Positions 2,315 through 40,314 of a DNA stretch of 64,000 nt are shown piece by piece. A model generated the notes under the pieces. It saw only the letters and a list, made by a program, of their open reading frames with translations. It was not told the DNA's origin and searched no databases. The position numbers were made by a program, and so were the translations under genes. Location of the stretch: the NCBI GenBank assembly GCA_963662945.1, contig OY759974.1, positions 2,400,001-2,464,000 of the forward strand. Reading direction: 5' to 3'. The first letter of the stretch is position 1; every line of letters starts with the position of its first letter. The DNA comes from Arcobacteraceae bacterium (GTDB lineage: Bacteria; Campylobacterota; Campylobacteria; Campylobacterales; Arcobacteraceae).

Positions 2315-4129
2315 TTATACAATTCCCCAATAATCAATAAACTCATCATCCACATCTATAATCTTTCTCTTTCTCAAATCCTCAATCACACTTGTTGTAC
2401 ACACAACATCATCTGGCCATCTTCGCTGAAAGTTATCATGTGAGTTTTTATTTGTAGCATCTATACTTATTGTATGCCCATCTATATAGATATCTCTATT
2501 GCTATCTATATTGTTTACAACTCTCCATACTAGCATATATGGATTGTCTAAAGTATTGTTTTTCTCATCTACTATTGCTAATATTTTGATATGTGAGAAT
2601 AGGGGTTTTAGTTCCTCTATGAGGTACTTTTGACTTCTGTTTTTTTCTACACTTATTACTACTATTGGATTCTTTGTATTTGTGTAGTATTGTTTTAAAC
2701 CTTTGATATCTTTTGAGATATTTTGCATCTTTTCTAAGAGTAGGGTATCTTCTAAAACGTCAATACCAAGTTCCTCTATCTCATCCCCTGTACAATCAAC
2801 TCCAAGCTTTCCACCAATAGCAAACTTAGGACTACTATGGTCAAGTGCATCTACTACACCTTTTGTGATAAGGAGTTCTTCTGCATTTACTCTATTTAAG
2901 ATATATGGGATAATCTCATCACTAGATAACTCTGGTGCATCTTGATTTACGAAAATTGCATGTTTTACAAAACTCATCTGACCTACACCCCAAAATGCAT
3001 GCATAATTTGTTGTGCGTGACCTGGGTAGGCTGTTTTTATTTTTCCTAAGATAAGGTTGTGAAATACACCATTTTCAGGCATATAGTAATCACATAAATC
3101 AGGGGCTGTAGTTTGAAGTAGTGGAAGGAATATTCTCTCTGTAGCATGACCCATATATTTATCTTCTAAAAGCGGTTTCCCTACAACAGTTGCTGCAAAT
3201 ACTGGGTTTTTCTTAGATGTGATGGCTGTTACTTCTAAAAATGGATACTCCTCTTCTAGGGTATAATATCCAGTATGATCTCCAAAAGGTCCTTCAATTC
3301 GCATATTCTCAACATCTACAAACCCCTCTATTACAAAGTCCACATCGTGTGGTACATAGATGTCATTAGTTATAGATTTTACAAGTTTTGCATTTTCTTT
3401 TTTTACAAAACCATAAAGCATGAGTTCAAATACACCAATAGGAAGTGGAGCTTGTCCACACCAAATATACATAGGATCACCACCGATACCAATACTTACA
3501 GGCATTTTTTTGCCAGCTTTTTTATACTCGTGGAAGAAGTGGTTTGAGTCTTTATGGATTTGCCAATGCATCCCTAAAGTTTGGTCATCATACACTTGCA
3601 GTCTATACATCCCTACATTGTGCATCTTTCCATCTAAGCTTGTTGTATACACTTGCCCCATAGTGATGAATGGACCTCCATCTTGCTCCCAAGTAGTAAG
3701 GATTGGTAAGTCACTAAGTTTTGCTTCACTTCCTGTTTTTATAATCTGTTGACATTCCCCTTTCCCACTTAATCTTTTTGGAAATACCGATTTGAGATTG
3801 AAAAGTTGCCCAAACATAGAGAGCTTATCCATAAAACCACTTGGTGGTTTCATCTTCAATAGGCTTTGAATCTCAGCTGCTATTGTATCCCCATCTCCTA
3901 TGAAAAGCTCTACCGCTTCTTCATTACAAAAAACATTCATTAAAACAGGTGTTGTAAACTCTTTATGATTTTTTTTATCTATAGGATTTGTAAAAAGAAG
4001 CGCTTTGCTATCCTCTTTTTTTACTTCTATATAGGCAATATGTGGAATCTCTAAGTAAATATCAAGAGGTTCATCGATAACTTTTAGTAAATTGTGTTGT
4101 TTTAATTGTTTTATTATTTTATCTTCCAT
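2315..4129 (-). CDS. Menaquinone biosynthesis decarboxylase (UbiD family, futalosine pathway)
   Basis: UbiD motifs NVGMYRLQV, EGPFGDHTGYY and VVGKP..ED. Start moved to ATG 4129 (MEDKII), which follows a TATAAT box. Confidence 0.88.
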   Translation of the reverse strand: MEDKIIKQLKQHNLLKVIDEPLDIYLEIPHIAYIEVKKEDSKALLFTNPIDKKNHKEFTTPVLMNVFCNEEAVELFIGDGDTIAAEIQSLLKMKPPSGFMDKLSMFGQLFNLKSVFPKRLSGKGECQQIIKTGSEAKLSDLPILTTWEQDGGPFITMGQVYTTSLDGKMHNVGMYRLQVYDDQTLGMHWQIHKDSNHFFHEYKKAGKKMPVSIGIGGDPMYIWCGQAPLPIGVFELMLYGFVKKENAKLVKSITNDIYVPHDVDFVIEGFVDVENMRIEGPFGDHTGYYTLEEEYPFLEVTAITSKKNPVFAATVVGKPLLEDKYMGHATERIFLPLLQTTAPDLCDYYMPENGVFHNLILGKIKTAYPGHAQQIMHAFWGVGQMSFVKHAIFVNQDAPELSSDEIIPYILNRVNAEELLITKGVVDALDHSSPKFAIGGKLGVDCTGDEIEELGIDVLEDTLLLEKMQNISKDIKGLKQYYTNTKNPIVVISVEKNRSQKYLIEELKPLFSHIKILAIVDEKNNTLDNPYMLVWRVVNNIDSNRDIYIDGHTISIDATNKNSHDNFQRRWPDDVVCTTSVIEDLRKRKIIDVDDEFIDYWGIV

Positions 4130-6351: not shown

Positions 6352-7626
6352 TTAGATATTTCTTTCAATTTTTTTTTCTAATAACTCAAGATGAACAATA
6401 AGATTATAATATTCTCCTTTGTATGAAAGAGGAACTTGTGTTTTTGTTTGTATTTCATCTTTTAAAGTTTCTATCTCTTTTTTTATTTCATCTCGATTTT
6501 CATTATTGTTTATTTTTCTGTTAAGTATGTCTAGTTTTTCATACCATCGATATATTTTAGCACGTGTAGTTATAACATATAAAGGGATGATACTTTTAAA
6601 TAGAGGAATAATAAGCCAAATAAGTGGGATGATAAGAAGTTTTAGTCTATCAATATTTGAAGCCACCCAATATGGAAATATCTTTTCAAGCCAAGATTCT
6701 CCATTGAGCAAGTAAAGTTCTGCATCATCATTTATAACAGTATCTATATGTTTTGAATTTAAAAATTCATCTGCATTTTGGAAAAATGTTTTTCCTCCAT
6801 GGATTTGTTGTACTTTTTTTAAGAAGATTCTTATAAGTTCACCAGGTAGATCTGGATTACACACAAGGTTTTGTGTTGTACTTAATAGATTTACATCTTT
6901 TGATGGAAGATTTTTGTATAAATCAATACTTCCCTCATACAGTTTTAATGCAATAAGATAATCAAATTTTTGTGTATAAGCATTGATCCGTTTTAAACTC
7001 ATTAGTTCTATATCAGGGTCTGCAAGAAGTGCTTGAATATTTGGATTGTCTTTTGTAGCAAGTGTTATAAAAATATCTATTTTTTTATTTTTAAGTTGTT
7101 TTAATGCATCTTCATCATAGATATAAGTTGTATTTACATTCTCTATTAAACCATTTGATAGAGAAAGTTTTTGTGCTAAATCATAGGTACCATCATTTGT
7201 CATACTGATACCTAAATTTTTTCCTGTAGCTTCAATAAGATAATTTAAACTATAACCATCATTTCTATAAAATATCCAAAGTGGTTCATAATATACACTA
7301 GCTAGAGATTCAAAGTTATATTCTCTTTTGTTTATAAGTAATCCACTATGTACAAATCCTATATCAGCTTTTTTTGTATCTAGATATCCAATAGTGTCTA
7401 AACTACCAAGAGTAGGTATCACTTCAAGATCAACACCTTCTGGTTCTAGAAGTGCCTTATAAGAGATGGCATAAGCATAGCTATCACTCCCCACAGCACC
7501 AGTTGCAATTCTAAGTGTTTTTTTAGCTACTGGGGCAGTAAGTTGAATATATACAAAAGAGATTATTAATAAGATAATAAATATGATAATCCAAACTTTT
7601 GAAATATTGTCAAATATTTTTTTCAT
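6352..7626 (-). CDS. TAXI-family TRAP solute-binding protein with C-terminal TM and coiled coil
   Basis: LRIATGAVGSDSY, TLGSLD and SVYYEPLWIFYR motifs. Confidence 0.75.
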   Translation of the reverse strand: MKKIFDNISKVWIIIFIILLIISFVYIQLTAPVAKKTLRIATGAVGSDSYAYAISYKALLEPEGVDLEVIPTLGSLDTIGYLDTKKADIGFVHSGLLINKREYNFESLASVYYEPLWIFYRNDGYSLNYLIEATGKNLGISMTNDGTYDLAQKLSLSNGLIENVNTTYIYDEDALKQLKNKKIDIFITLATKDNPNIQALLADPDIELMSLKRINAYTQKFDYLIALKLYEGSIDLYKNLPSKDVNLLSTTQNLVCNPDLPGELIRIFLKKVQQIHGGKTFFQNADEFLNSKHIDTVINDDAELYLLNGESWLEKIFPYWVASNIDRLKLLIIPLIWLIIPLFKSIIPLYVITTRAKIYRWYEKLDILNRKINNNENRDEIKKEIETLKDEIQTKTQVPLSYKGEYYNLIVHLELLEKKIERNI

Positions 7627-32362: not shown

Positions 32363-34303
32363 TTGTCACAACAATTACTACAAAAACAAGCGGATACAAT
32401 TAGATTTTTAGCAGCTGATATGGTACAAGCTGCGAATAGTGGGCATCCTGGTGCTCCAATGGGATTAGCAGATATAGCTACAGTTTTAAGTAAGCATTTA
32501 AGACTTGACCCAAATAACACACAATGGTTAAATAGAGACAGATTAGTTTTTTCAGGTGGTCATGCTTCATCACTTGTTTACTCTTTATTACATCTTTGGG
32601 GATTTGATGTAACTTTAGAAGATTTAAAACAATTTAGACAAACAGGAAGTAAAACTCCAGGACATCCAGAATATGGACATACAAGTGGTGTAGAGATTAC
32701 AACTGGACCATTAGGGCAGGGTATCGCAAATGCTGTTGGTTTTGCAATGGCAAGTGCTTATGCAAAACATTGTTTAAATAGTGAAACAGCGCAAGTTATC
32801 GATCATCATGTATATTGTTTATGTGGTGATGGAGATTTACAAGAGGGTATCTCTTATGAAGCGTGTGCTACTTTAGGACACCAAGGAATTTCAAACTTTA
32901 CACTTATTTATGATTCAAATGATATTACTATTGAGGGTGATATCTCTATTGCTTGGTCTGAGGATGTTGCAAAAAGATTTGAAGCTATTAACTTCAATGC
33001 TGTGACAATTGATGGGCATGATTTTGATGCTATTGATAAAGCTATAACTGATTCAAAAAACAGTTCAAAACCTACAATTATCATAGCGAAAACTGCTATT
33101 GGAAAAGGTGCTGCTACATTAGAGGGAAGTCATCATACACATGGTGCACCACTTGGAGCTGAAGAGTTAGCTGCTTCTAAAACAAAAGCTGGTTTTGATC
33201 CTGAAAAATCATTTTTTATACCAGAAGATGTAAAAGCAGCATTTGATAAAACAGAGTCAGGTGCTTTACAAAGTAAAGCTTGGGAAAAACTAGTTAAAAA
33301 AGACTTACCATTAAGTGAGCAAAATGAAGCATTAAATGCACTTTTAAATCCAGATTTTTCTAAAGTAAATTATCCAGATTTTAGTGATGTAGATTCTATG
33401 GCAACAAGAGATTCAAATCACAAAATATTAAATGCAATTGCTGGTGCAGTTCCATCATTTTTAGGTGGAAGTGCAGATTTAGCACCATCAAATAAAACTG
33501 AGTTGATGGGACTTGGTGATTTCCCAAGAGGAAGAAATATCCACTTTGGTATCAAAGAACACTCAATGGCAGCTATTACAAATGCTATGAATATTTATGG
33601 ATTATTTAGAGTATTTAGTGCAACATTCTTTATCTTTAGTGATTATTTAAAACCAGCTGCAAGAGTAGCTGCACTTTCAAGTATCCCACAACATTTTGTA
33701 TGGACACATGATAGTATTGGAGTAGGGGAAGATGGTGCAACTCATCAACCTATCGAGCAACTAAGCCAATTTAGAGCATTACCAAACTTTTATACATTTA
33801 GACCTGCTGATGCTACTGAAAATATTGAGTGTTGGAAAACTGCATTTACACTAAATGCACCTACAGCTTTTGTATGTTCTAGACAAAAGTTAACTAACTT
33901 AAAAGGGCAAAAAGTAGTTGGAGATGTTTCAAAAGGTGGATATCTTGTAACAAAACACGATAAAGCAGATGTAACATTTATGGCAAGTGGGAGTGAAGTA
34001 TCACTTTGTCTTGAAGCTGCTAAGTTATTAGAAAAAGCAGGAGTATATGCAAATGTTGTATCTGTTCCTTGTTTTGATTTACTTGTAGAGCAAGATATAG
34101 ATTATATTGATGAAATCATTGATATGAACAATACTTTTGTAGTAGCTGTAGAAGCTGCAACTGCTATGGAATACTACAAATTTGCTGATGTGGTTATCGG
34201 TATGACTGGATTTGGAGAGAGTGGACCTGCTGAGGAACTTTTTGAAAAATTTGGTTTCACACCAGAAAAAATCGCTGCTAGAGTTCAAGAGATAGTAGCG
34301 TAA
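32363..34303 (+). CDS. tkt: Transketolase
   Basis: SGHPGAPMG, TPGHPE, GDGDLQEG and THDSIGVGEDGATHQP; TTG start after AGGA. Confidence 0.97.
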   Translation: MSQQLLQKQADTIRFLAADMVQAANSGHPGAPMGLADIATVLSKHLRLDPNNTQWLNRDRLVFSGGHASSLVYSLLHLWGFDVTLEDLKQFRQTGSKTPGHPEYGHTSGVEITTGPLGQGIANAVGFAMASAYAKHCLNSETAQVIDHHVYCLCGDGDLQEGISYEACATLGHQGISNFTLIYDSNDITIEGDISIAWSEDVAKRFEAINFNAVTIDGHDFDAIDKAITDSKNSSKPTIIIAKTAIGKGAATLEGSHHTHGAPLGAEELAASKTKAGFDPEKSFFIPEDVKAAFDKTESGALQSKAWEKLVKKDLPLSEQNEALNALLNPDFSKVNYPDFSDVDSMATRDSNHKILNAIAGAVPSFLGGSADLAPSNKTELMGLGDFPRGRNIHFGIKEHSMAAITNAMNIYGLFRVFSATFFIFSDYLKPAARVAALSSIPQHFVWTHDSIGVGEDGATHQPIEQLSQFRALPNFYTFRPADATENIECWKTAFTLNAPTAFVCSRQKLTNLKGQKVVGDVSKGGYLVTKHDKADVTFMASGSEVSLCLEAAKLLEKAGVYANVVSVPCFDLLVEQDIDYIDEIIDMNNTFVVAVEAATAMEYYKFADVVIGMTGFGESGPAEELFEKFGFTPEKIAARVQEIVA

Positions 34304-34319
34304 CTCTTAAAATGGCAGA

Positions 34320-34374
34320 TATCAATAATGCAGTTGTGATTGTCTCAATCGCTGCGTTATTGATAGGCTTTTTT
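34320..34374 (+). terminator. Probable tkt terminator
   Basis: TATCAATAATGCAG...CTGCGTTATTGATA stem followed by a T run. Confidence 0.6.
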
Positions 34375-34404
34375 CTTTATATTATTTTTTAACTTATTAA
34401 AATA

Positions 34405-34938
34405 TCACTTTGGTCTAAATCCTATTAAATTATCATTTGTCTTTTGAGTATCTTGTAAGATTTGATGTAAGAGTTCAAAAGCTTCATCTATTCTATGAGT
34501 ATTGTAGTTTTGATGTTGTTGGTCAATTTTAATCGTTTTTTCTATCTCTTCTATTCTCTGTGCTATATCTTTATAGTTTAAAGCAAATTCTCTCATTTTT
34601 GTAAATGTTCGCATGATAGTAAGAGTCACTTCTGTAGCAACTTGACTTTTTAACACCGTTGCCAACATATACACTCCCTGTTCTGTAAAAACTTTAGGTA
34701 AATATTTTCTATCTTTTAAGCTTTCTTTAAAGGTCGCATTTTGCGACCTTAAGATATCTACTTCTTCCTTTGTCATCTCAAAAAATAAATCGCAAGGAAA
34801 TCTTTCAGGATTTCTTTTAACAGCTTCATTTATCCTTTTTGTTTCTACATTGTATAAATTTGCTAAATCACTATCTAACATAATATTGAGATTACGAACT
34901 TTATATATCTTTGTTTCTATATTATTTACAATTTCCAT
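34405..34938 (-). CDS. ORF6N-domain DNA-binding protein
   Basis: MLDSDLANLYNVETKRINEAVKRNPERFP, FTEQGVYMLATVLKS and C-terminal IGF. Confidence 0.88.
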   Translation of the reverse strand: MEIVNNIETKIYKVRNLNIMLDSDLANLYNVETKRINEAVKRNPERFPCDLFFEMTKEEVDILRSQNATFKESLKDRKYLPKVFTEQGVYMLATVLKSQVATEVTLTIMRTFTKMREFALNYKDIAQRIEEIEKTIKIDQQHQNYNTHRIDEAFELLHQILQDTQKTNDNLIGFRPK

Positions 34939-35025
34939 ATCTGATACTCCTATTTTTTCTAAAGTATCTTATCATCTTTTTTAATTTGAGATTGAAAATA
35001 TGGCATATTGTAATATTTATGTTTT

Positions 35026-35259
35026 TTAGCAGAGTGTTTTTTGTCTGTTTATTTTTTCTTCTATAGTTTTAGTTGTATTATTAATATTGTCGTATAATGA
35101 TTTTCTTTGGTCATGTGTAATATCTTCTGATAGTAAATATTCTAATATGTTTAATGTTGTTTCAACAAGTATATAATCCTCTTGAAGGTCTTTTTTATAT
35201 TTTTCAATTCTTTGTATTGATGATTTTATTTTATCTTTCAAAATCATTCTTTTTCTCAA
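35026..35259 (-). CDS. Small hypothetical protein
   Basis: Helical 73-77 aa ORF overlapping the upstream ORF; start uncertain. Confidence 0.45.
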   Translation of the reverse strand: MRKRMILKDKIKSSIQRIEKYKKDLQEDYILVETTLNILEYLLSEDITHDQRKSLYDNINNTTKTIEEKINRQKTLC

Positions 35260-35458
35260 TTTCTTTTAAGTAGTATTCAAGTACAAAAATTACATTATCA
35301 TTTTTTTCTAACCATTTATGTATCTCTTTATTTGAAGCATTTGTATTTAGTAAAATATTTATCTTTTTTAATAATATTTTAGTGAATAGATATTTTTCTT
35401 GGATTGTTTCATAATTTTTATCTATTCTTTGTTTTAGGTTTATTATTGTTTGTTGCAA
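35231..35458 (-). CDS. Small hypothetical protein
   Basis: 75-aa ORF, TTG start after AAGG, divergent from the XRE gene. Confidence 0.5.
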   Translation of the reverse strand: MQQTIINLKQRIDKNYETIQEKYLFTKILLKKINILLNTNASNKEIHKWLEKNDNVIFVLEYYLKEIEKKNDFER

Positions 35459-35485
35459 ATTTTAGCCTTTGAAAAATATTTCAAA

Positions 35486-35559
35486 TTTATCCTATAGGAT
35501 AAAGATTTTTTAATTATATAACTATAAAGTTTAATTTTAAATTAACTCTATAGGATAAA
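35486..35559. promoter_or_regulatory. Pair of operator-like sites in divergent promoter region
   Basis: Perfect palindrome TTTATCCTATAGGATAAA (35486-35503) and a 15/18 copy TTAACTCTATAGGATAAA (35542-35559) overlapping the XRE gene RBS. Confidence 0.7.
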
Positions 35560-35563
35560 TAAG

Positions 35564-35815
35564 ATGGAAACCGATTTTAGTAACTCAACAAAAGAAGAAA
35601 TAAAAAAGTTTTATGAAAATATTTCAAAAAAAGTAAAGTTTTTTCGAGAAAGTAAAAATATAACTCAATTGGATTTAGCTTTGGATATAGGGATAAAGTC
35701 TGTAGCCTTTTATTCAAATTGTGAAAATAATAAATATGATAAACATTTTAATTTAGAACACTTGTATAAAATTGCCAAGTCTTTGAAGGTAGATATTAAT
35801 GAGTTTTTTAATTAA
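35564..35815 (+). CDS. XRE-family helix-turn-helix regulator
   Basis: VKFFRESKNITQLDLA...YSNCEN...LYKIAKSL. Confidence 0.85.
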   Translation: METDFSNSTKEEIKKFYENISKKVKFFRESKNITQLDLALDIGIKSVAFYSNCENNKYDKHFNLEHLYKIAKSLKVDINEFFN

Positions 35816-35835
35816 ATGTTATGATTATTTAGTAG

Positions 35836-35970
35836 GTATAACGTCTGAACTGAAGGACGATGACCCCATCAATATGTTTGCTGGCTTCTTTTTTAACTAA
35901 TACATAAAAGCTAATTTAGGCTTAAATATTTGCAGGGGTCACGCGTTCTTTTTCCTGTATTTTGTTATAT
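35836..35970 (-). other. attC site of cassette 4 (135 bp)
   Basis: Minus strand: ATATAAC-aaaat-ACAGGAAA...GTGACCCC...GGGGTCAT...tcagac-GTTATAC. Confidence 0.75.
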
Positions 35971-35992
35971 CTTATATAGTTTATGCTAATTA

Positions 35993-36349
35993 TTACAGTC
36001 TATCTGCATAACAAGTCCCATTGTCTTTTTTACCCCATTTATTCTCAATATAAATATATTCTCTATCCTCAGGTTCATAGTGATGAAATTTATAAGTGTA
36101 ACTATCATTTTTATATATAATGATTTCAGTTTTGAAATCATCATATTCTGATAATTTCTTTGAAAATGAATCAACTTTCCAAACGGTATATTTATTGTTA
36201 ACAAGAATTTTATTACTATCTAAATATCTACCAAATACTTTTATAGTGATATTGTCACCACTTTTCATTTTACATTCTAAATTATATATAAATGCCTTTG
36301 CATTTGTAAAAATTCCAAAGATTAATAATATGCTTAATAAGAACTTCAT
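35993..36349 (-). CDS. Cassette 4: small exported protein of unknown function
   Basis: Signal peptide MKFLLSILLIFGIFTNAKA, two Cys near the mature termini, purine-rich RBS. Confidence 0.75.
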   Translation of the reverse strand: MKFLLSILLIFGIFTNAKAFIYNLECKMKSGDNITIKVFGRYLDSNKILVNNKYTVWKVDSFSKKLSEYDDFKTEIIIYKNDSYTYKFHHYEPEDREYIYIENKWGKKDNGTCYADRL

Positions 36350-36389
36350 TTGAATATATCCTTTTATAAAGTAAATAGCTATTTTGTAG

Positions 36390-36522
36390 ATATAACGACC
36401 GAGTTGAAAAACAAGGTGTTATTTTTAATAAGATGTTCAAATCTTCATCTAAGTAATTTTACAAGATAAAGCTTAAATAATTGTAGTGTAACCTTGTTTT
36501 TCTTTCCAACGATTTGTTAGAT
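36390..36522 (-). other. attC site of cassette 3 (133 bp)
   Basis: Minus strand: ATCTAAC-aaatc-GTTGGAAA-GAAAAACAAGGT...ACCTTGTTTTTCAAC-tcggtc-GTTATAT. Confidence 0.82.
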
Positions 36523-36523
36523 T

Positions 36524-37006
36524 TTATAATATCTCAATATATGAATTATCTTTTTTTATTTCTTGTCTTAAATTTAGAATAAATTCAAGTTTTAATTTTC
36601 TGACATATTGTTTTAAATATTTTTTTGGCAAAAACTTAGTCCACATAGGTAAATCAAATTTATCATTTAAATAATATTTATCAAAATATATTTTAACAAT
36701 TTTTAAATTTTTTCCTTTTGTGTTTGTTGGAATAAAACATCTCCATGGTTTTTGATTATATAATATATTATTTTTAAAAGGTGTTGATTCATTCATACTA
36801 ATTTGTTGAACTTTTCCAGACCATTTAAATACAAGAACTACACCTTGATTTTGAAATTCCTGTCCGTAGTTATACCCTTGCTTTATAGAACAAAAACAAT
36901 TTAAACAAGAATCACCATTATAAATATTTCTTGAAAAAGGTATAAATTGTTTGCTTTTAATAATATTTAATGCAGAAGTTAAATTTGTAATATGATAAAT
37001 ATACAA
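36524..37006 (-). CDS. Cassette 3: protein with ADP-ribosyltransferase-like N-terminal YHxT motif
   Basis: The ORF-track start (37090) lies inside an attC. A better start is TTG 37006 after AAGGA, giving MYIYHITNLTSALNIIKSKQF (160 aa). The stop abuts attC R''. Confidence 0.7.
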   Translation of the reverse strand: MYIYHITNLTSALNIIKSKQFIPFSRNIYNGDSCLNCFCSIKQGYNYGQEFQNQGVVLVFKWSGKVQQISMNESTPFKNNILYNQKPWRCFIPTNTKGKNLKIVKIYFDKYYLNDKFDLPMWTKFLPKKYLKQYVRKLKLEFILNLRQEIKKDNSYIEIL

Positions 37007-37047
37007 TGATAGTCCTTTTTTATTACATAGTAAAATTTGATTTATAA

Positions 37048-37117
37048 ATCTAACGTTTGACTTGAGAAATAGTTGTGCCCGCAGGGTCAACTATTTCTCT
37101 CCAAGGTTTTGTTAGAC
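37048..37117 (-). other. attC site of cassette 2 (70 bp)
   Basis: Minus strand: GTCTAAC-aaaac-CTTGGAGA-GAAATAGTTGACCCTGCGGGCACAACTATT-TCTCAAG-tcaaac-GTTAGAT. Confidence 0.9.
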
Positions 37118-37128
37118 TTTTAATACAA

Positions 37129-37923
37129 CTATCCAATGTATAAATCATTCACCATTAATGGTACTTTGTGTAATTTATAATCAAGTTTTTTCATTAATTT
37201 TTCTTGCTCGTTTTGAATAAAAGGTTCTTGTCTTCTTTGAGTATCTTGTTTATATGTCCTAATTTCTTGTAGCATCTCTCGATTATGCTCTTCTTGTCCT
37301 CTTATCATTTCTCTTAATTGACGCTGATTATGTCTAATTTCATCTTGACCATTTAATAAATCAATGTGAGTTGGTTGCTCATTATGTATATGTATCTCTT
37401 GATTTATATTTATAATTTGTCTATCTTGAGCAAAGATAGAATCTAATGATGTATTAAGTCCATATATGATAACTCCTTCTGCCAAAATAGCTAACACTTT
37501 TTTTCCATTCAAGTGATACTTGTGTGGCGAATTTAATTCAATTTTTGTAAAGGACAATGCTTGTTCATCAACATAAATTGGTTCATACTTTCCATGACTA
37601 TTCCCACACATAATAATTGGTCTTTGGAGGCTGTGAAATTTTTTCCAAAATGATTTAGCATCTCTCTCTTTACTTTCAAGAAATACAAAATCATTATAGT
37701 TTTCAATAGTGTATTTTTCAGCTTCTTTTGGAACTGTTGAATATAAATCAAAAGAACGAGTAGCAATGATAAAATCTGAATCATGTGCACCATCTGCATA
37801 TAGTTTTTCCATGCTTTCAAGCATAGATAATTTCATATAATATTCACCAAGGAAAGTAACTGTATGTCCCATCATCCAGTGAGGTTGAATTGTTGGTGAT
37901 TGGAAAACTGTATTAATATTCAT
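37129..37923 (-). CDS. Cassette 2: hypothetical protein (hydrophobic segment + coiled coil)
   Basis: 264-aa ORF filling the space between two attC sites; RBS AAGGA. Confidence 0.8.
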   Translation of the reverse strand: MNINTVFQSPTIQPHWMMGHTVTFLGEYYMKLSMLESMEKLYADGAHDSDFIIATRSFDLYSTVPKEAEKYTIENYNDFVFLESKERDAKSFWKKFHSLQRPIIMCGNSHGKYEPIYVDEQALSFTKIELNSPHKYHLNGKKVLAILAEGVIIYGLNTSLDSIFAQDRQIININQEIHIHNEQPTHIDLLNGQDEIRHNQRQLREMIRGQEEHNREMLQEIRTYKQDTQRRQEPFIQNEQEKLMKKLDYKLHKVPLMVNDLYIG

Positions 37924-37941
37924 TTATTATGTCCTTTTGTA

Positions 37942-38010
37942 GTCTAACGGTTGAAGTGAGCTAATAAATTGCCCGCAGGGTAATTTATTAGCTCCTCTGA
38001 TTTGTTAGAC
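37942..38010 (-). other. attC site of cassette 1 (69 bp)
   Basis: Minus strand: GTCTAAC-aaatc-AGAGGAGC-TAATAAATTACCCTGCGGGCAATTTATTA-GCTCACT-tcaacc-GTTAGAC. Confidence 0.9.
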
Positions 38011-38048
38011 ATTAGTAAAATTTTTCTATATCTATAATTCATTAAGTT

Positions 38049-38972
38049 TTATAGAATTTTTTCTCTATTGATTTTTTCTTGATTTAAAGTAAAACCTTTG
38101 TTATTAAACACAGTTATTTGTAAATAATCATTAGATTGGTCATCAATATAGTCTCTAAAATTAATAAAATTATTTTCTTCAATAATTTTAAAATCATTAC
38201 TTATAATTTTTGAACTATTATTAGACTCTAAAACTATAGATAAACTTTTAATTAAAAAATATGTAAGTGATTCAGTTATTTTAATTACTGTATTAACCAT
38301 AGGGTATTCATATACATCAGAATCTATGAGTAGTATATTATCTTCTGTATCTTTAAAGCATGAAAAACAACATTGAATGTATGGTTCAACAGATGATAAG
38401 TGGGTAAGTATGTTTCTAAAGCTTTTTTTATTTCCTTTTTCAAGTAAATTAAATATATGTGATTTTAATTCATCTATTTCTTTTTGGAGTAATTTTATAT
38501 TATCCTTTGAATGATTTTTAACATATGATTCAAATAATTCAAAGTCTGATTGCTTTGGCTTTTTTAATTTTCTAGCAGGTTTTCCAAAATTTTTATAAAC
38601 AAAGTTGAAAAAGATATCTAAAGTGGATTTAGAATGCATAATAAAAGATCCAAAATCAGATGCAATTGTTACTTCATTAAATAATAATAATTCATTGTTC
38701 TCTTTATCTTTTATTGTTGTTGTGTTATGAGATTGTTTTATTAAATTAATAGATTTTTGTCTGATTTGATAAGAATAATATAGGATAGTAAACATTTTTT
38801 CTTTAAATGAGTTAGTGTCTTGTAAGCTAGAACTATCTAATTCTTTATGTACTTCTTTGTACATATTTAATGCATTTTCATTAGCAAAACCTTCAAAATA
38901 TGGATATAGTAAGCTTCTATTATAACTCGTATAGTTTTCACCATTTTTATTAAAATATAAATTCAAGTTCAT
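38049..38972 (-). CDS. Cassette 1: putative HEPN-domain protein
   Basis: Helical 307-aa protein with Rx4H motif (FRNILTH) and upstream SFIMHSKSTLD segment. Confidence 0.7.
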   Translation of the reverse strand: MNLNLYFNKNGENYTSYNRSLLYPYFEGFANENALNMYKEVHKELDSSSLQDTNSFKEKMFTILYYSYQIRQKSINLIKQSHNTTTIKDKENNELLLFNEVTIASDFGSFIMHSKSTLDIFFNFVYKNFGKPARKLKKPKQSDFELFESYVKNHSKDNIKLLQKEIDELKSHIFNLLEKGNKKSFRNILTHLSSVEPYIQCCFSCFKDTEDNILLIDSDVYEYPMVNTVIKITESLTYFLIKSLSIVLESNNSSKIISNDFKIIEENNFINFRDYIDDQSNDYLQITVFNNKGFTLNQEKINREKIL

Positions 38973-38977
38973 CCTTT

Positions 38978-38998
38978 GTCTAACTCTTTATTGAAGAT
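38978..38998 (-). other. attI-like recombination site
   Basis: Minus strand ...CTTCAATAAAGA-GTTAGAC-AAAGG-ATG. The core site has no inverted partner and lies directly before cassette 1. Confidence 0.65.
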
Positions 38999-39000
38999 AC

Positions 39001-39028
39001 ATTATATATAAAACACCCTGAAAATCAA
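39001..39028 (-). promoter_or_regulatory. Pc-like cassette promoter
   Basis: Minus strand TTGATT-N16-TATAAT, pointing into the array, 16 bp before the GTT core. Confidence 0.6.
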
Positions 39029-39410
39029 TAAATAACATACATAAAAAATGTTGTTTTATTTATTCGTTATAAAGCCTTTAAATAAAAGTCTTCTTACACA
39101 TTTTACTGTAAAAAACATTGCAATTTAAGATATTTTTTAAATAAATTTTAAGTTTTTGCTACAATTTTTATGTATGTTTAATGTCGATATTTCGATGATA
39201 ATAGTACATAATGTATGTATATTAAGACAATATCGTAATAAACCTGCATTATGTTAAATATATTGGGAGAGATATTATAAGTAAATAAAATCGAATGAAC
39301 TGTAACCAAACTTTACAAAAATATTCTCTTATAATCAATCTAAATCCTTATTAGCAACACTTTATCTCTCTATGCTATAATATCTCATAATTAACTATTA
39401 GGAGAGCAGA

Positions 39411-39923
39411 ATGATGGGATTTACAAAATTTAAAGGTACAGATGTAACATTAGAGGGAACACAACTAGAAGTTGGGGATATGGCTCCTGTTGTTACTATA
39501 GTTGGGGCTGATTTAGAAGATATTGAAGTTGGTGGTTCAAATGACCAAATACAACTTATCATCTCAGTACCATCTCTTGATACAGCAACTTGTGCAGCTG
39601 AAACTCGAAGATTCAATGAAGAGGTTGGGGCACTTGATATTTGTACAACAACTGTTATCTCTATGGATTTACCATTTGCAAGTGCAAAGTTCTGTACAAC
39701 AGAAGGTATAGATAACCTTGAAGTTGGAAGTGATTATGTTGATAAAGAGTTTGGAAAAGCTTATGGTGTATTGATGACTGACAATAAACTAAAAGGTTTA
39801 CTTGCTAGAACAGTTTTTGTAGTAGATAGAAATGGTATCATAGTATATAAACAAATAGTTCCAGAAGTTACAGCTGAACCAGATTATGAAGAGGTTTTAG
39901 AAGCGATTAAAGGGGCAAGATAA
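39411..39923 (+). CDS. tpx: Thiol peroxidase
   Basis: VPSLDTATC, SMDLPFA..FC and LLARTVFV. Confidence 0.93.
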   Translation: MMGFTKFKGTDVTLEGTQLEVGDMAPVVTIVGADLEDIEVGGSNDQIQLIISVPSLDTATCAAETRRFNEEVGALDICTTTVISMDLPFASAKFCTTEGIDNLEVGSDYVDKEFGKAYGVLMTDNKLKGLLARTVFVVDRNGIIVYKQIVPEVTAEPDYEEVLEAIKGAR

Positions 39924-39924
39924 G

Positions 39925-40314
39925 GTGTCTTATCAGTCTTGGCACCAAGAACACGCCCAAAAGCATAAAAAGCTTCTAGAGAAGCTAAAAGATTTAAGTG
40001 ACAATGAGATTATAGAGTATTTTAGTTTTGAAAATATGGTTATCAAAGAACCAGATTTTTGCCCTTTATACAAAGAGAATAGAAAATGTCACAATATGGA
40101 AAATCTGAATTGCTATTTTTGTGCTTGTCCAAACTTTAGAGTAGAGGAAAAACAAAGCACTTGTTCCATAAAAAGTAAAGATGGTGGAAGTATAAAGTCT
40201 CCTGATGGTTTTATCCATCAGGATTGCTCAAAGTGTACAGTTCCCCATAAAGTAGAATATGTCAAAAAACATTTTGATAGAGATTGGTTAAAAGTTATGA
40301 AGAATAACTTTTAA
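39925..40314 (+). CDS. Cysteine-rich small domain protein
   Basis: FCPLY..KCH..LNCYFCACP...DCSKCTVPH. Confidence 0.75.
   Translation: MSYQSWHQEHAQKHKKLLEKLKDLSDNEIIEYFSFENMVIKEPDFCPLYKENRKCHNMENLNCYFCACPNFRVEEKQSTCSIKSKDGGSIKSPDGFIHQDCSKCTVPHKVEYVKKHFDRDWLKVMKNNF

Follow-up and report, generated by a model that had tools for sequence, protein, structure and literature searches.

The window considered here is a stretch of 64,000 nucleotides from the genome of an Arcobacteraceae bacterium (contig OY759974.1; we call this genome G000), and its subject is an array of integron gene cassettes next to tpx, a gene for a thiol peroxidase-like redoxin. We consider it probable that positions 35027-39276 hold a decapitated chromosomal integron, that is, an attC cluster without an integron integrase (CALIN) which kept its attI site and a promoter-like site. 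The locus is one of five integrase-less platforms in a genome with a single integrase. Whether that integrase still serves it in trans is a separate matter, to which we give close to, or slightly less than, an even chance. The kind of locus is an ordinary one, and its details are of modest interest. All array coordinates below are on the minus strand, and the array consists of the following parts.

38984..39276, minus strand: attI-plus-promoter module, apparently a former spacer between intI and attI, ending at the crossover G of AG^TTA at 38984 (the crossover is marked ^)
39001..39028, minus strand: candidate cassette promoter (Pc), TTGATT-N16-TATAAT, 10 of 12 matches in a consensus scan, 17 nt upstream of the crossover
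37948..38983, minus strand: cassette 1, with an open reading frame (ORF) at 38972..38049 (307 aa, no family match) and attC1 at 38010..37942 (69 nt, 86.5 bits with a covariance model)
37054..37947, minus strand: cassette 2, with an ORF at 37923..37129 (264 aa, no family match) and attC2 at 37117..37048 (70 nt, 82.5 bits)
36396..37053, minus strand: cassette 3, with an ORF at about 37006..36524 (160 aa, no family match) and attC3 at 36522..36390 (133 nt, 51.3 bits)
35842..36395, minus strand: cassette 4, with an ORF at 36349..35993 (118 aa) and attC4 at 35970..35836 (135 nt, 57.7 bits)
35027..35841, minus strand: cassette 5, without attC, variable relative to the sister species G013, with homologs in the relatives G015, G011 and G020

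The evidence starts at the cassette edges. The G of the core-site GTT lies at 38984, 37948, 37054, 36396 and 35842, and the R'' boxes (..AAC) end at 38004, 37111, 36516 and 35964. A first-pass annotation of this DNA had claimed that each cassette's 5' start matches the reverse complement of its own R'', that the two ends of a single in-array attC match less well, and that such a pattern arises when circular cassettes recombine at G^TT. The first two claims are borne out and the third is established knowledge. The contiguous matches to the own R'' are 8, 8, 9 and 9 nt for cassettes 1-4, in the very strings that had been named (GTTAGACA, GTTAGACT, GTTAGATTT and GTTATATCT), while with the R' at the opposite end of their in-array attC the same R'' boxes agree over only 7, 6, 4 and 6 nt.

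It may be asked whether such short matches are simply chance among similar GTTA-rich sites. Indeed all the sites have GTTA, in a low-complexity, AT-rich context. However, in the 4 x 5 match matrix the unique maximum of every row is the site one step upstream, and this upstream assignment is, judged by inspection, the single best among 120 possible. A wider survey of 15 cassettes from six arrays in two genomes (G000 and G013; R'' and R' located by regular expression) found the own 5' start to match better than the in-array R' in 14 cassettes, with one tie and no reversal, the lone tie being a G013 site whose R'' reads AGC in place of AAC. DNA folding agrees: when each attC was rejoined in a script with its own 5' end, imitating the excised circle, the bottom strand came out more stable than the in-array hybrid in four of four cases (-19.1 vs -18.2, -16.6 vs -14.2, -18.1 vs -13.5 and -15.7 vs -13.3 kcal/mol). 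We regard coincidence as a negligible explanation.

In sequence, length and orientation the sites resemble attC sites. Such sites carry an R'' box (RYYYAAC) and an R' box (GTTRRRY), span 57-141 nt and all lie in one orientation. The four sites of the window, of 69, 70, 133 and 135 nt, are imperfect palindromes in a single orientation. The R'' boxes of attC1-3 fit the consensus and that of attC4 (ATATAAC) is off at one position; the R' boxes GTTATAT and GTTATAC are each off at one position too, and related sites elsewhere in the genus deviate likewise. What IntI recognises in an attC is a folded bottom strand that has extrahelical bases and, at its centre, an unpaired spacer. For the window sites, folding predicts hairpins in which the R box is paired and an internal spacer is unpaired, and it shows bulges in attC2 only; the z scores are -7.9 (69-nt site), -5.3 (70-nt site) and about -2 (133- and 135-nt sites).

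A scanner based on a regular expression and a stem gave 194 matches, mostly spurious, and a covariance model was used instead, trained on the four window sites and two look-alikes elsewhere in G000. In its own genome, where 150 of 3577 first-look candidates were scored, the model had 10 matches at E<=10. Nine reached E<=0.021, namely the four sites of the window, two directly 3' of intI, two at genome positions 964-2305 and one at 1980948; the tenth, at window 6763-6817 (minus strand, 18.3 bits, E about 9), is weak and probably chance. An Rfam scan of window 34000-40000 returned only a below-threshold chance match to a snoRNA and nothing relevant. By DNA search of the genus, a few sequence families, each of them lineage-wide, account for the attC sites; attC2, for example, is 90-93% identical to attC sites of the integrase-linked array and of G013.

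The proposed mechanism is the familiar one. Each cassette would have entered as a circle, by integrase-driven recombination of its folded attC with attI, the crossover falling between G and TT, and the last bases of the R' box of the circular attC would thereby end up at the cassette's 5' end. This is why a cassette's 5' end complements its own R'', and its neighbour's less so. The original papers on cassette recombination are reportedly those of Hall, Stokes and Recchia. It is on record that G^TTRRRY is the place of the crossover and that an inserted cassette has the distal R' bases at its 5' end, joined to the preceding attC (PMC11014356), and that chimeric attI/attC and attC/attC sites result from cassette integration (Cury et al. 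2016, PMC4889954). The matching cassette ends are thus the known scar of integron recombination at G^TT, and not a new phenomenon.

We disagree with the first-pass annotation regarding what lay here before. It predicted that removing all four cassettes would restore an empty site ...AATAAAGAG^TTATACCTACT, which implies successive insertions of the cassettes at a GTT of ordinary genomic DNA, known as a secondary site or attG. Such insertions are documented (preprint 10.1101/2022.09.11.507474), and indeed no intI lies nearby. However, the left half of the predicted site belongs to the conserved attI module and not to plain chromosome: over about 290 nt it is homologous to intI-attI spacers that adjoin intact intI in relatives. 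The right half, TTATACCTACT, is the start of the fifth cassette. The predicted site is therefore not ancestral, since it joins the left arm of attI to the start of another cassette. The junction itself, for which a search had been suggested, gave no match at two or fewer mismatches in G000 and 181 loci (887 kb), a set that does not extend to the whole genomes of relatives. In the tpx-tkt interval of G006 and G009 there are unrelated genes, with no module and no attC. An attG insertion implies a target that is not an att site and an empty site in relatives, and neither was seen in the sequences searched; we hold it to be very improbable here.

The 815 nt after the fourth attC are, by sequence comparison, a fifth cassette which lost its attC. 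This segment is variable with respect to G013, where homology resumes only at window 35026. A homolog of it in G015 is 82% identical. In G011 and G020 homologs stand inside arrays, directly after an attC, as a unit starting GTTATACCTA; three of these four copies end with an R''-like AGGTATAAC, the complement of their start, and the fourth has AGATATAAC. Beside the G015 homolog we observed a GC-richer, structured-looking stretch (L045 about 2330-2560, minus strand), without an attC there, which lies before it and may be a group II intron end, as one idea by eye.

At the left boundary of the array, window 39276-38984 is homologous to the spacer between intI and the first cassette of the one integrase-bearing integron of G000 (score 179 against 106 +/- 10.5 for shuffled sequences). 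This attI module occurs in six copies in G000, five of them without integrase. The copies at genome positions 3450, 1876593, 1981780 and 1431294 are 86, 76, 80 and 73% identical to the window copy, the integrase-linked one is 62% identical to it, and all six end at AG^TTA, after which they diverge. The DNA search of the genus took in 27 other genomes; the relatives belong to Campylobacterota, Arcobacteraceae, going by the titles of their records. The module adjoins an intact intI in G008, G043, G023 and G001 (the window copy being 81% identical to that of G008 and 83% to that of G043), frameshifted intI fragments or pseudogenes in G024 (two copies) and G007, and a 17-aa N-terminal intI remnant in G006.

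We aligned 19 copies from 11 genomes on the crossover G, four of 23 having been dropped for a variant core missed by the regular expression or for a contig end. Conservation is 1.45 bits per position over -30..0 and 1.84 over +1..+3, and falls to 0.38 over +4..+25. Because conservation stops after G^TTA in 19 copies, with the left arm fixed and the right arm changing, we call the module attI: a fixed left arm with an ever-changing right arm is the signature of a recombination site, so far as sequences can identify one. An attI lies between the start of intI and the first cassette and ends in a core site, and this position is seen in homologous copies of relatives, not at the tpx locus itself. 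Outside class 1, attI sites are poorly described, according to part of the IntegronFinder 2 paper (PMC9024848). Both TATATAATGTAT and TTGATTTT of the candidate promoter are conserved among module copies, and the promoter-like site TTGATT-N16-TATAAT would drive expression of the cassettes.

The integrase-linked module of G000 (C1:546658-546930) is the most divergent of the six copies, at 62% as against 73-86% for the others. Between the orphan copies and the integrase-linked modules of G008 and G043 the identity is 81-90%, and at the thrC locus, where G000 has intI, G009 has a module of the orphan type. These comparisons suggest that the thrC integron of G000 may have a separate history.

Where is the integrase? 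G000 has one, at C1:545688-546632, in an open frame. It scores 403 bits with TIGR02249, whose curated cut-off is 265. Its alignment to IntI4 (solved structure 2a3v, E 4e-83) is full-length and takes in the IntI-specific inserted segment and the ..IYTH.. tyrosine motif. It is thus a tyrosine recombinase with the extra segment and a score above the curated threshold, as an IntI should be. Its distance from the array is about 605 kb, provided that the contig is circular. There is no intI in the window, and this gene is the only TIGR02249 match above cut-off in the genome; nor does a search reaching 1.5 kb from the window module, the segment between module and tpx included, show any IntI match at E<=0.01. 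The array is thus not a complete integron, in which intI stands next to attI and the array, since tpx sits where intI would be, and it has the character of a CALIN, with no intI gene or pseudogene adjoining it.

How such a locus may come about is seen at the aspS locus, where the genus offers intI at successive stages: intact in G013, tail-to-tail with aspS; a pseudogene spread over three frames in G009; a 31-aa remnant in G008; deleted in G000, with the module about 19 nt after aspS (the array at 3450); a truncated module in G006; and nothing in G043. By analogy with this series we infer that the tpx-locus platform, too, arose by loss of intI.

The contents of the array appear to have changed after this loss. 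The window is collinear with G013, at 87% identity, over tpx, the intI-less junction and the module, and similarity stops at AGTTA; at the same tpx locus the G013 array has five attC sites and five different cassettes, none common with the window. The same intI-less junction with no common cassette means that the content changed after intI was lost, or that whole arrays were swapped. The PhoH, MatE and aspS orphan platforms, which are orthologous by synteny, likewise have different bases after G^TTA in different species. The first-pass annotation advised looking for the same cassettes at other loci, and this came out negative: by DNA search the ORFs of cassettes 1-4 have no homolog in any of the other 27 genomes, and only the attC families and the fifth cassette recur in the genus. 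Its other check, whether cassette edges in other genomes fall at the GTT, was passed at the 1981780 array: the first cassette there is 97.6% identical over 335 nt to a cassette of G011, compared with about 79-80% identity for core genes between the two genomes, and the homology begins at the G of G^TT, a G that belongs to attI in G000 and to attC in G011.

Two ways of accounting for these changes have to be weighed. In the first, the integrase about 605 kb away, or a transient foreign one, would have served the orphan attI in trans after the loss of the local intI. Extended to the whole genome, this describes a 'distributed integron', in which one integrase would serve at least five intI-less attI-promoter landing pads spread over the chromosome (the tpx, aspS, PhoH, MatE and M23 loci); every pad would be retained as a first-position expression site of its own and would go on exchanging cassettes after the loss of its intI. 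We put this forward tentatively, at somewhat less than even chances. The second has the same structure but inert since intI was lost; the difference from G013 and the cassette shared with G011 would then have come from imported arrays by homologous recombination, for which attI modules and attC families, being repeated, gave the homology arms, and no integrase would have acted in trans at this locus. Indeed modules and attC families are repeated, at 75-93% identity across loci and species, four genomes with modules have no intI, and no excision joints are seen in contigs. However, the divergence from G013 starts within 3 nt of the G^TT crossover, the homology of the G011-shared cassette begins exactly at the G although the partner sites are attI and attC, and the sequence after G^TTA is different every time in 19 copies. 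Homologous exchange would not set the junctions so exactly, and hence we disfavour this second account and judge it rather unlikely.

Several observations nevertheless weigh against the reading of the locus as a decapitated integron that kept its attI and promoter and may still be served in trans, and they should be stated together. No significant intI remnant (E<=0.01) is found at the tpx locus, so the loss of intI there is supported by the aspS analogy. Promoter-like matches in the region are at chance level, 38 found as against 39.2 expected in the consensus scan; since they are not enriched, support for the promoter comes from conservation among the copies. The attC model was trained on the very window sites that it scores. 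As the integrase-linked module of G000 is only 62% identical overall to the window module, recognition of the window attI by the G000 IntI is only presumed, though the last approximately 30 nt of the two match at 28 of 30 positions, by eye. G006, G011, G015 and G020 carry modules or arrays and no intI at E<=1e-30; arrays therefore persist without integrase, and whole-array homologous replacement could explain the species differences. Finally, the array is identical in contigs of four runs (X15, X17, X18 and X19; three samples, two studies), and none of these contigs joins across a cassette at G^TT, with the caveat that contigs drop rare variants and circles. The small-share metagenomes X1-X14 do not count as evidence here. 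Some apparent contig joints were considered as traces of excision and set aside: they have short sides or 761 letters between them, and they fit paralogous attI/attC copies, such as the one-cassette array at 1981780.

The suggestion of recent activity in the first-pass annotation is thus supported only weakly and indirectly. The turnover since the split from the sister species G013 speaks for it, and the unchanged array in contigs speaks against it, although contigs lose rare variants and so say nothing on excision. Its argument from a lack of decay fails, since decay there is: cassette 5 is without its attC, and intI is gone from the locus.

Of the cassette contents little can be said. The proteins of cassettes 1-4 have no family in Pfam, NCBIfam or PADLOC, and searches of PDB sequences with those of cassettes 2 and 3 gave nothing meaningful. 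The ORF of cassette 3 starts with TTG preceded by AAGGA, and the cassette 4 protein has a hydrophobic N-terminus, signal-peptide-like by eye. A relationship between the cassette 1 protein and a 517-aa protein of the 1876593 array, which shares the first approximately 20 nt after attI, was considered and dismissed, the two being unrelated (E 1.3). The details of cassette 5 and the flanks are as follows.

35564..35815, plus strand (antisense to the array): HTH_3/XRE gene of cassette 5, Pfam HTH_3 at E 5e-8
35500..35489, minus strand: palindrome ATCCTATAGGAT of cassette 5
35458..35231 and 35259..35026, minus strand: small ORFs of cassette 5
39411..39923, plus strand: tpx, thiol peroxidase-like redoxin, the left flanking core gene (Pfam Redoxin, 2.6e-22), diverging from the array and occupying the place expected for intI
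34405..35026, minus strand: right flank, where homology to G013 resumes, with an ORF6N-domain gene at 34938..34405 and a conserved leader of about 80 nt at 35026..34943

The conserved leader (about 60-80 nt, window 34943-35026) also precedes an unrelated gene of 287-290 aa at the same place in G006 and G009. ORF6N-domain genes stand at the distal end of two arrays, at window 34405-34938 and at L017 9649-9972; the latter, in the 1981780 array, is a truncated fragment that starts inside an attC.

A few further observations concern the other arrays. Next to lysA, at C1:1431294-1431970 of G000 (L043 4294-4970), an orphan attI is followed by a 198-aa lipoprotein-like ORF and an apparently decayed short attC (...TTCAATTCAACCGTCCAAAG, with the R' GTT changed to GTC); this unit looks like a decaying single-cassette array. 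In the integrase-linked integron, an R''/L''-like start (AAAGACTAACAAAACGTTGGAAA) follows the third ORF (171 aa, lipoprotein-like) at C1:549153-549490 (L016 5153-5490), with no matching 3' arm within about 330 nt after it; the array may end here in an attC that is degenerate or interrupted. A hairpin of about 40 nt (TTTTCC.CGTT.CACCTCTCC.GAGGTG.AATGCAT) is found after the last attC both of the integrase-linked array of G000 (L016 5229-5268) and of the G013 tpx array (L038 about 5921-5884, minus strand), and it has one copy only in G000. G043 has an intact integron, and G009 an attI module with a cassette, beside orthologs of the window DNA at about 2318-2840 and 1056-1303; G000 has no module at window about 1056-2840. 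In the orphan array of the aspS locus (C1:1029-3425 of G000, L041, minus strand), SIR2/ThsA-like (379 aa) and TIR-domain (371 aa) proteins are encoded in adjacent cassettes with an attC at 2169-2305 between them, which has the look of a Thoeris-like defence pair with one member per cassette.

It remains to compare the tpx locus with systems already described. With CALINs as defined by Cury et al. (2016, PMC4889954) it shares two or more attC sites of one orientation with no intI nearby, and an IntI gene at another place in the genome, as about half of that study's CALINs have; the intact-to-deleted intI series at the aspS locus fits the proposal made there that CALINs originate by integrase loss. 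It differs in keeping an attI-plus-promoter module, of which the genome has several copies. In that study, according to sections of its text, attI was detected by exact match for classes 1-3 only, and 15 of 279 CALINs had intI pseudogenes nearby. Cassettes away from the integrase and a crossover at GTT are also features of insertions at attG sites and of single attC sites lacking an integrase (SALIN) (Loot et al., 10.1101/2022.09.11.507474), but here the target is a conserved attI homolog and not a generic genomic site. The Xanthomonas ilvD integrons and their conserved-position CALINs (10.1101/2025.06.18.660453) likewise show stepwise inactivation of intI across a genus and conserved chromosomal loci, and CALINs can be mobilised in trans according to the same preprint; the present case, however, is in another phylum, its orphan loci keep attI-promoter modules, and the first cassette varies between species.

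Sedentary chromosomal integrons of the Vibrio superintegron type resemble it as well: the integrase aligns full-length to IntI4, the attC families are few, and most cassettes have no known function, defence-like genes being present in a sister array of G000. The XRE-type regulator and small ORFs in one cassette are, going by their sequences, reminiscent of toxin-antitoxin cassettes. The difference is that here there are one to five cassettes per array, at six or more loci each with attI, and not one long array. In the literature searched we met no account of CALINs with attI in Arcobacteraceae, which is no proof that none exists.

The locus and its relatives make a clean natural case for the origin of CALINs, with attI and promoter kept, intI at every stage of decay at orthologous loci, and first cassettes that still differ between species with the same integrase-less junction. 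Recent reports hold that chromosomal integrons store anti-phage genes, with which the SIR2- and TIR-domain cassettes of the sister array agree. If it is true that one integrase acts on several orphan attI sites in trans, the expressed 'first position' would be multiplied in these bacteria, and CALINs would be working parts of the system and not only its debris.

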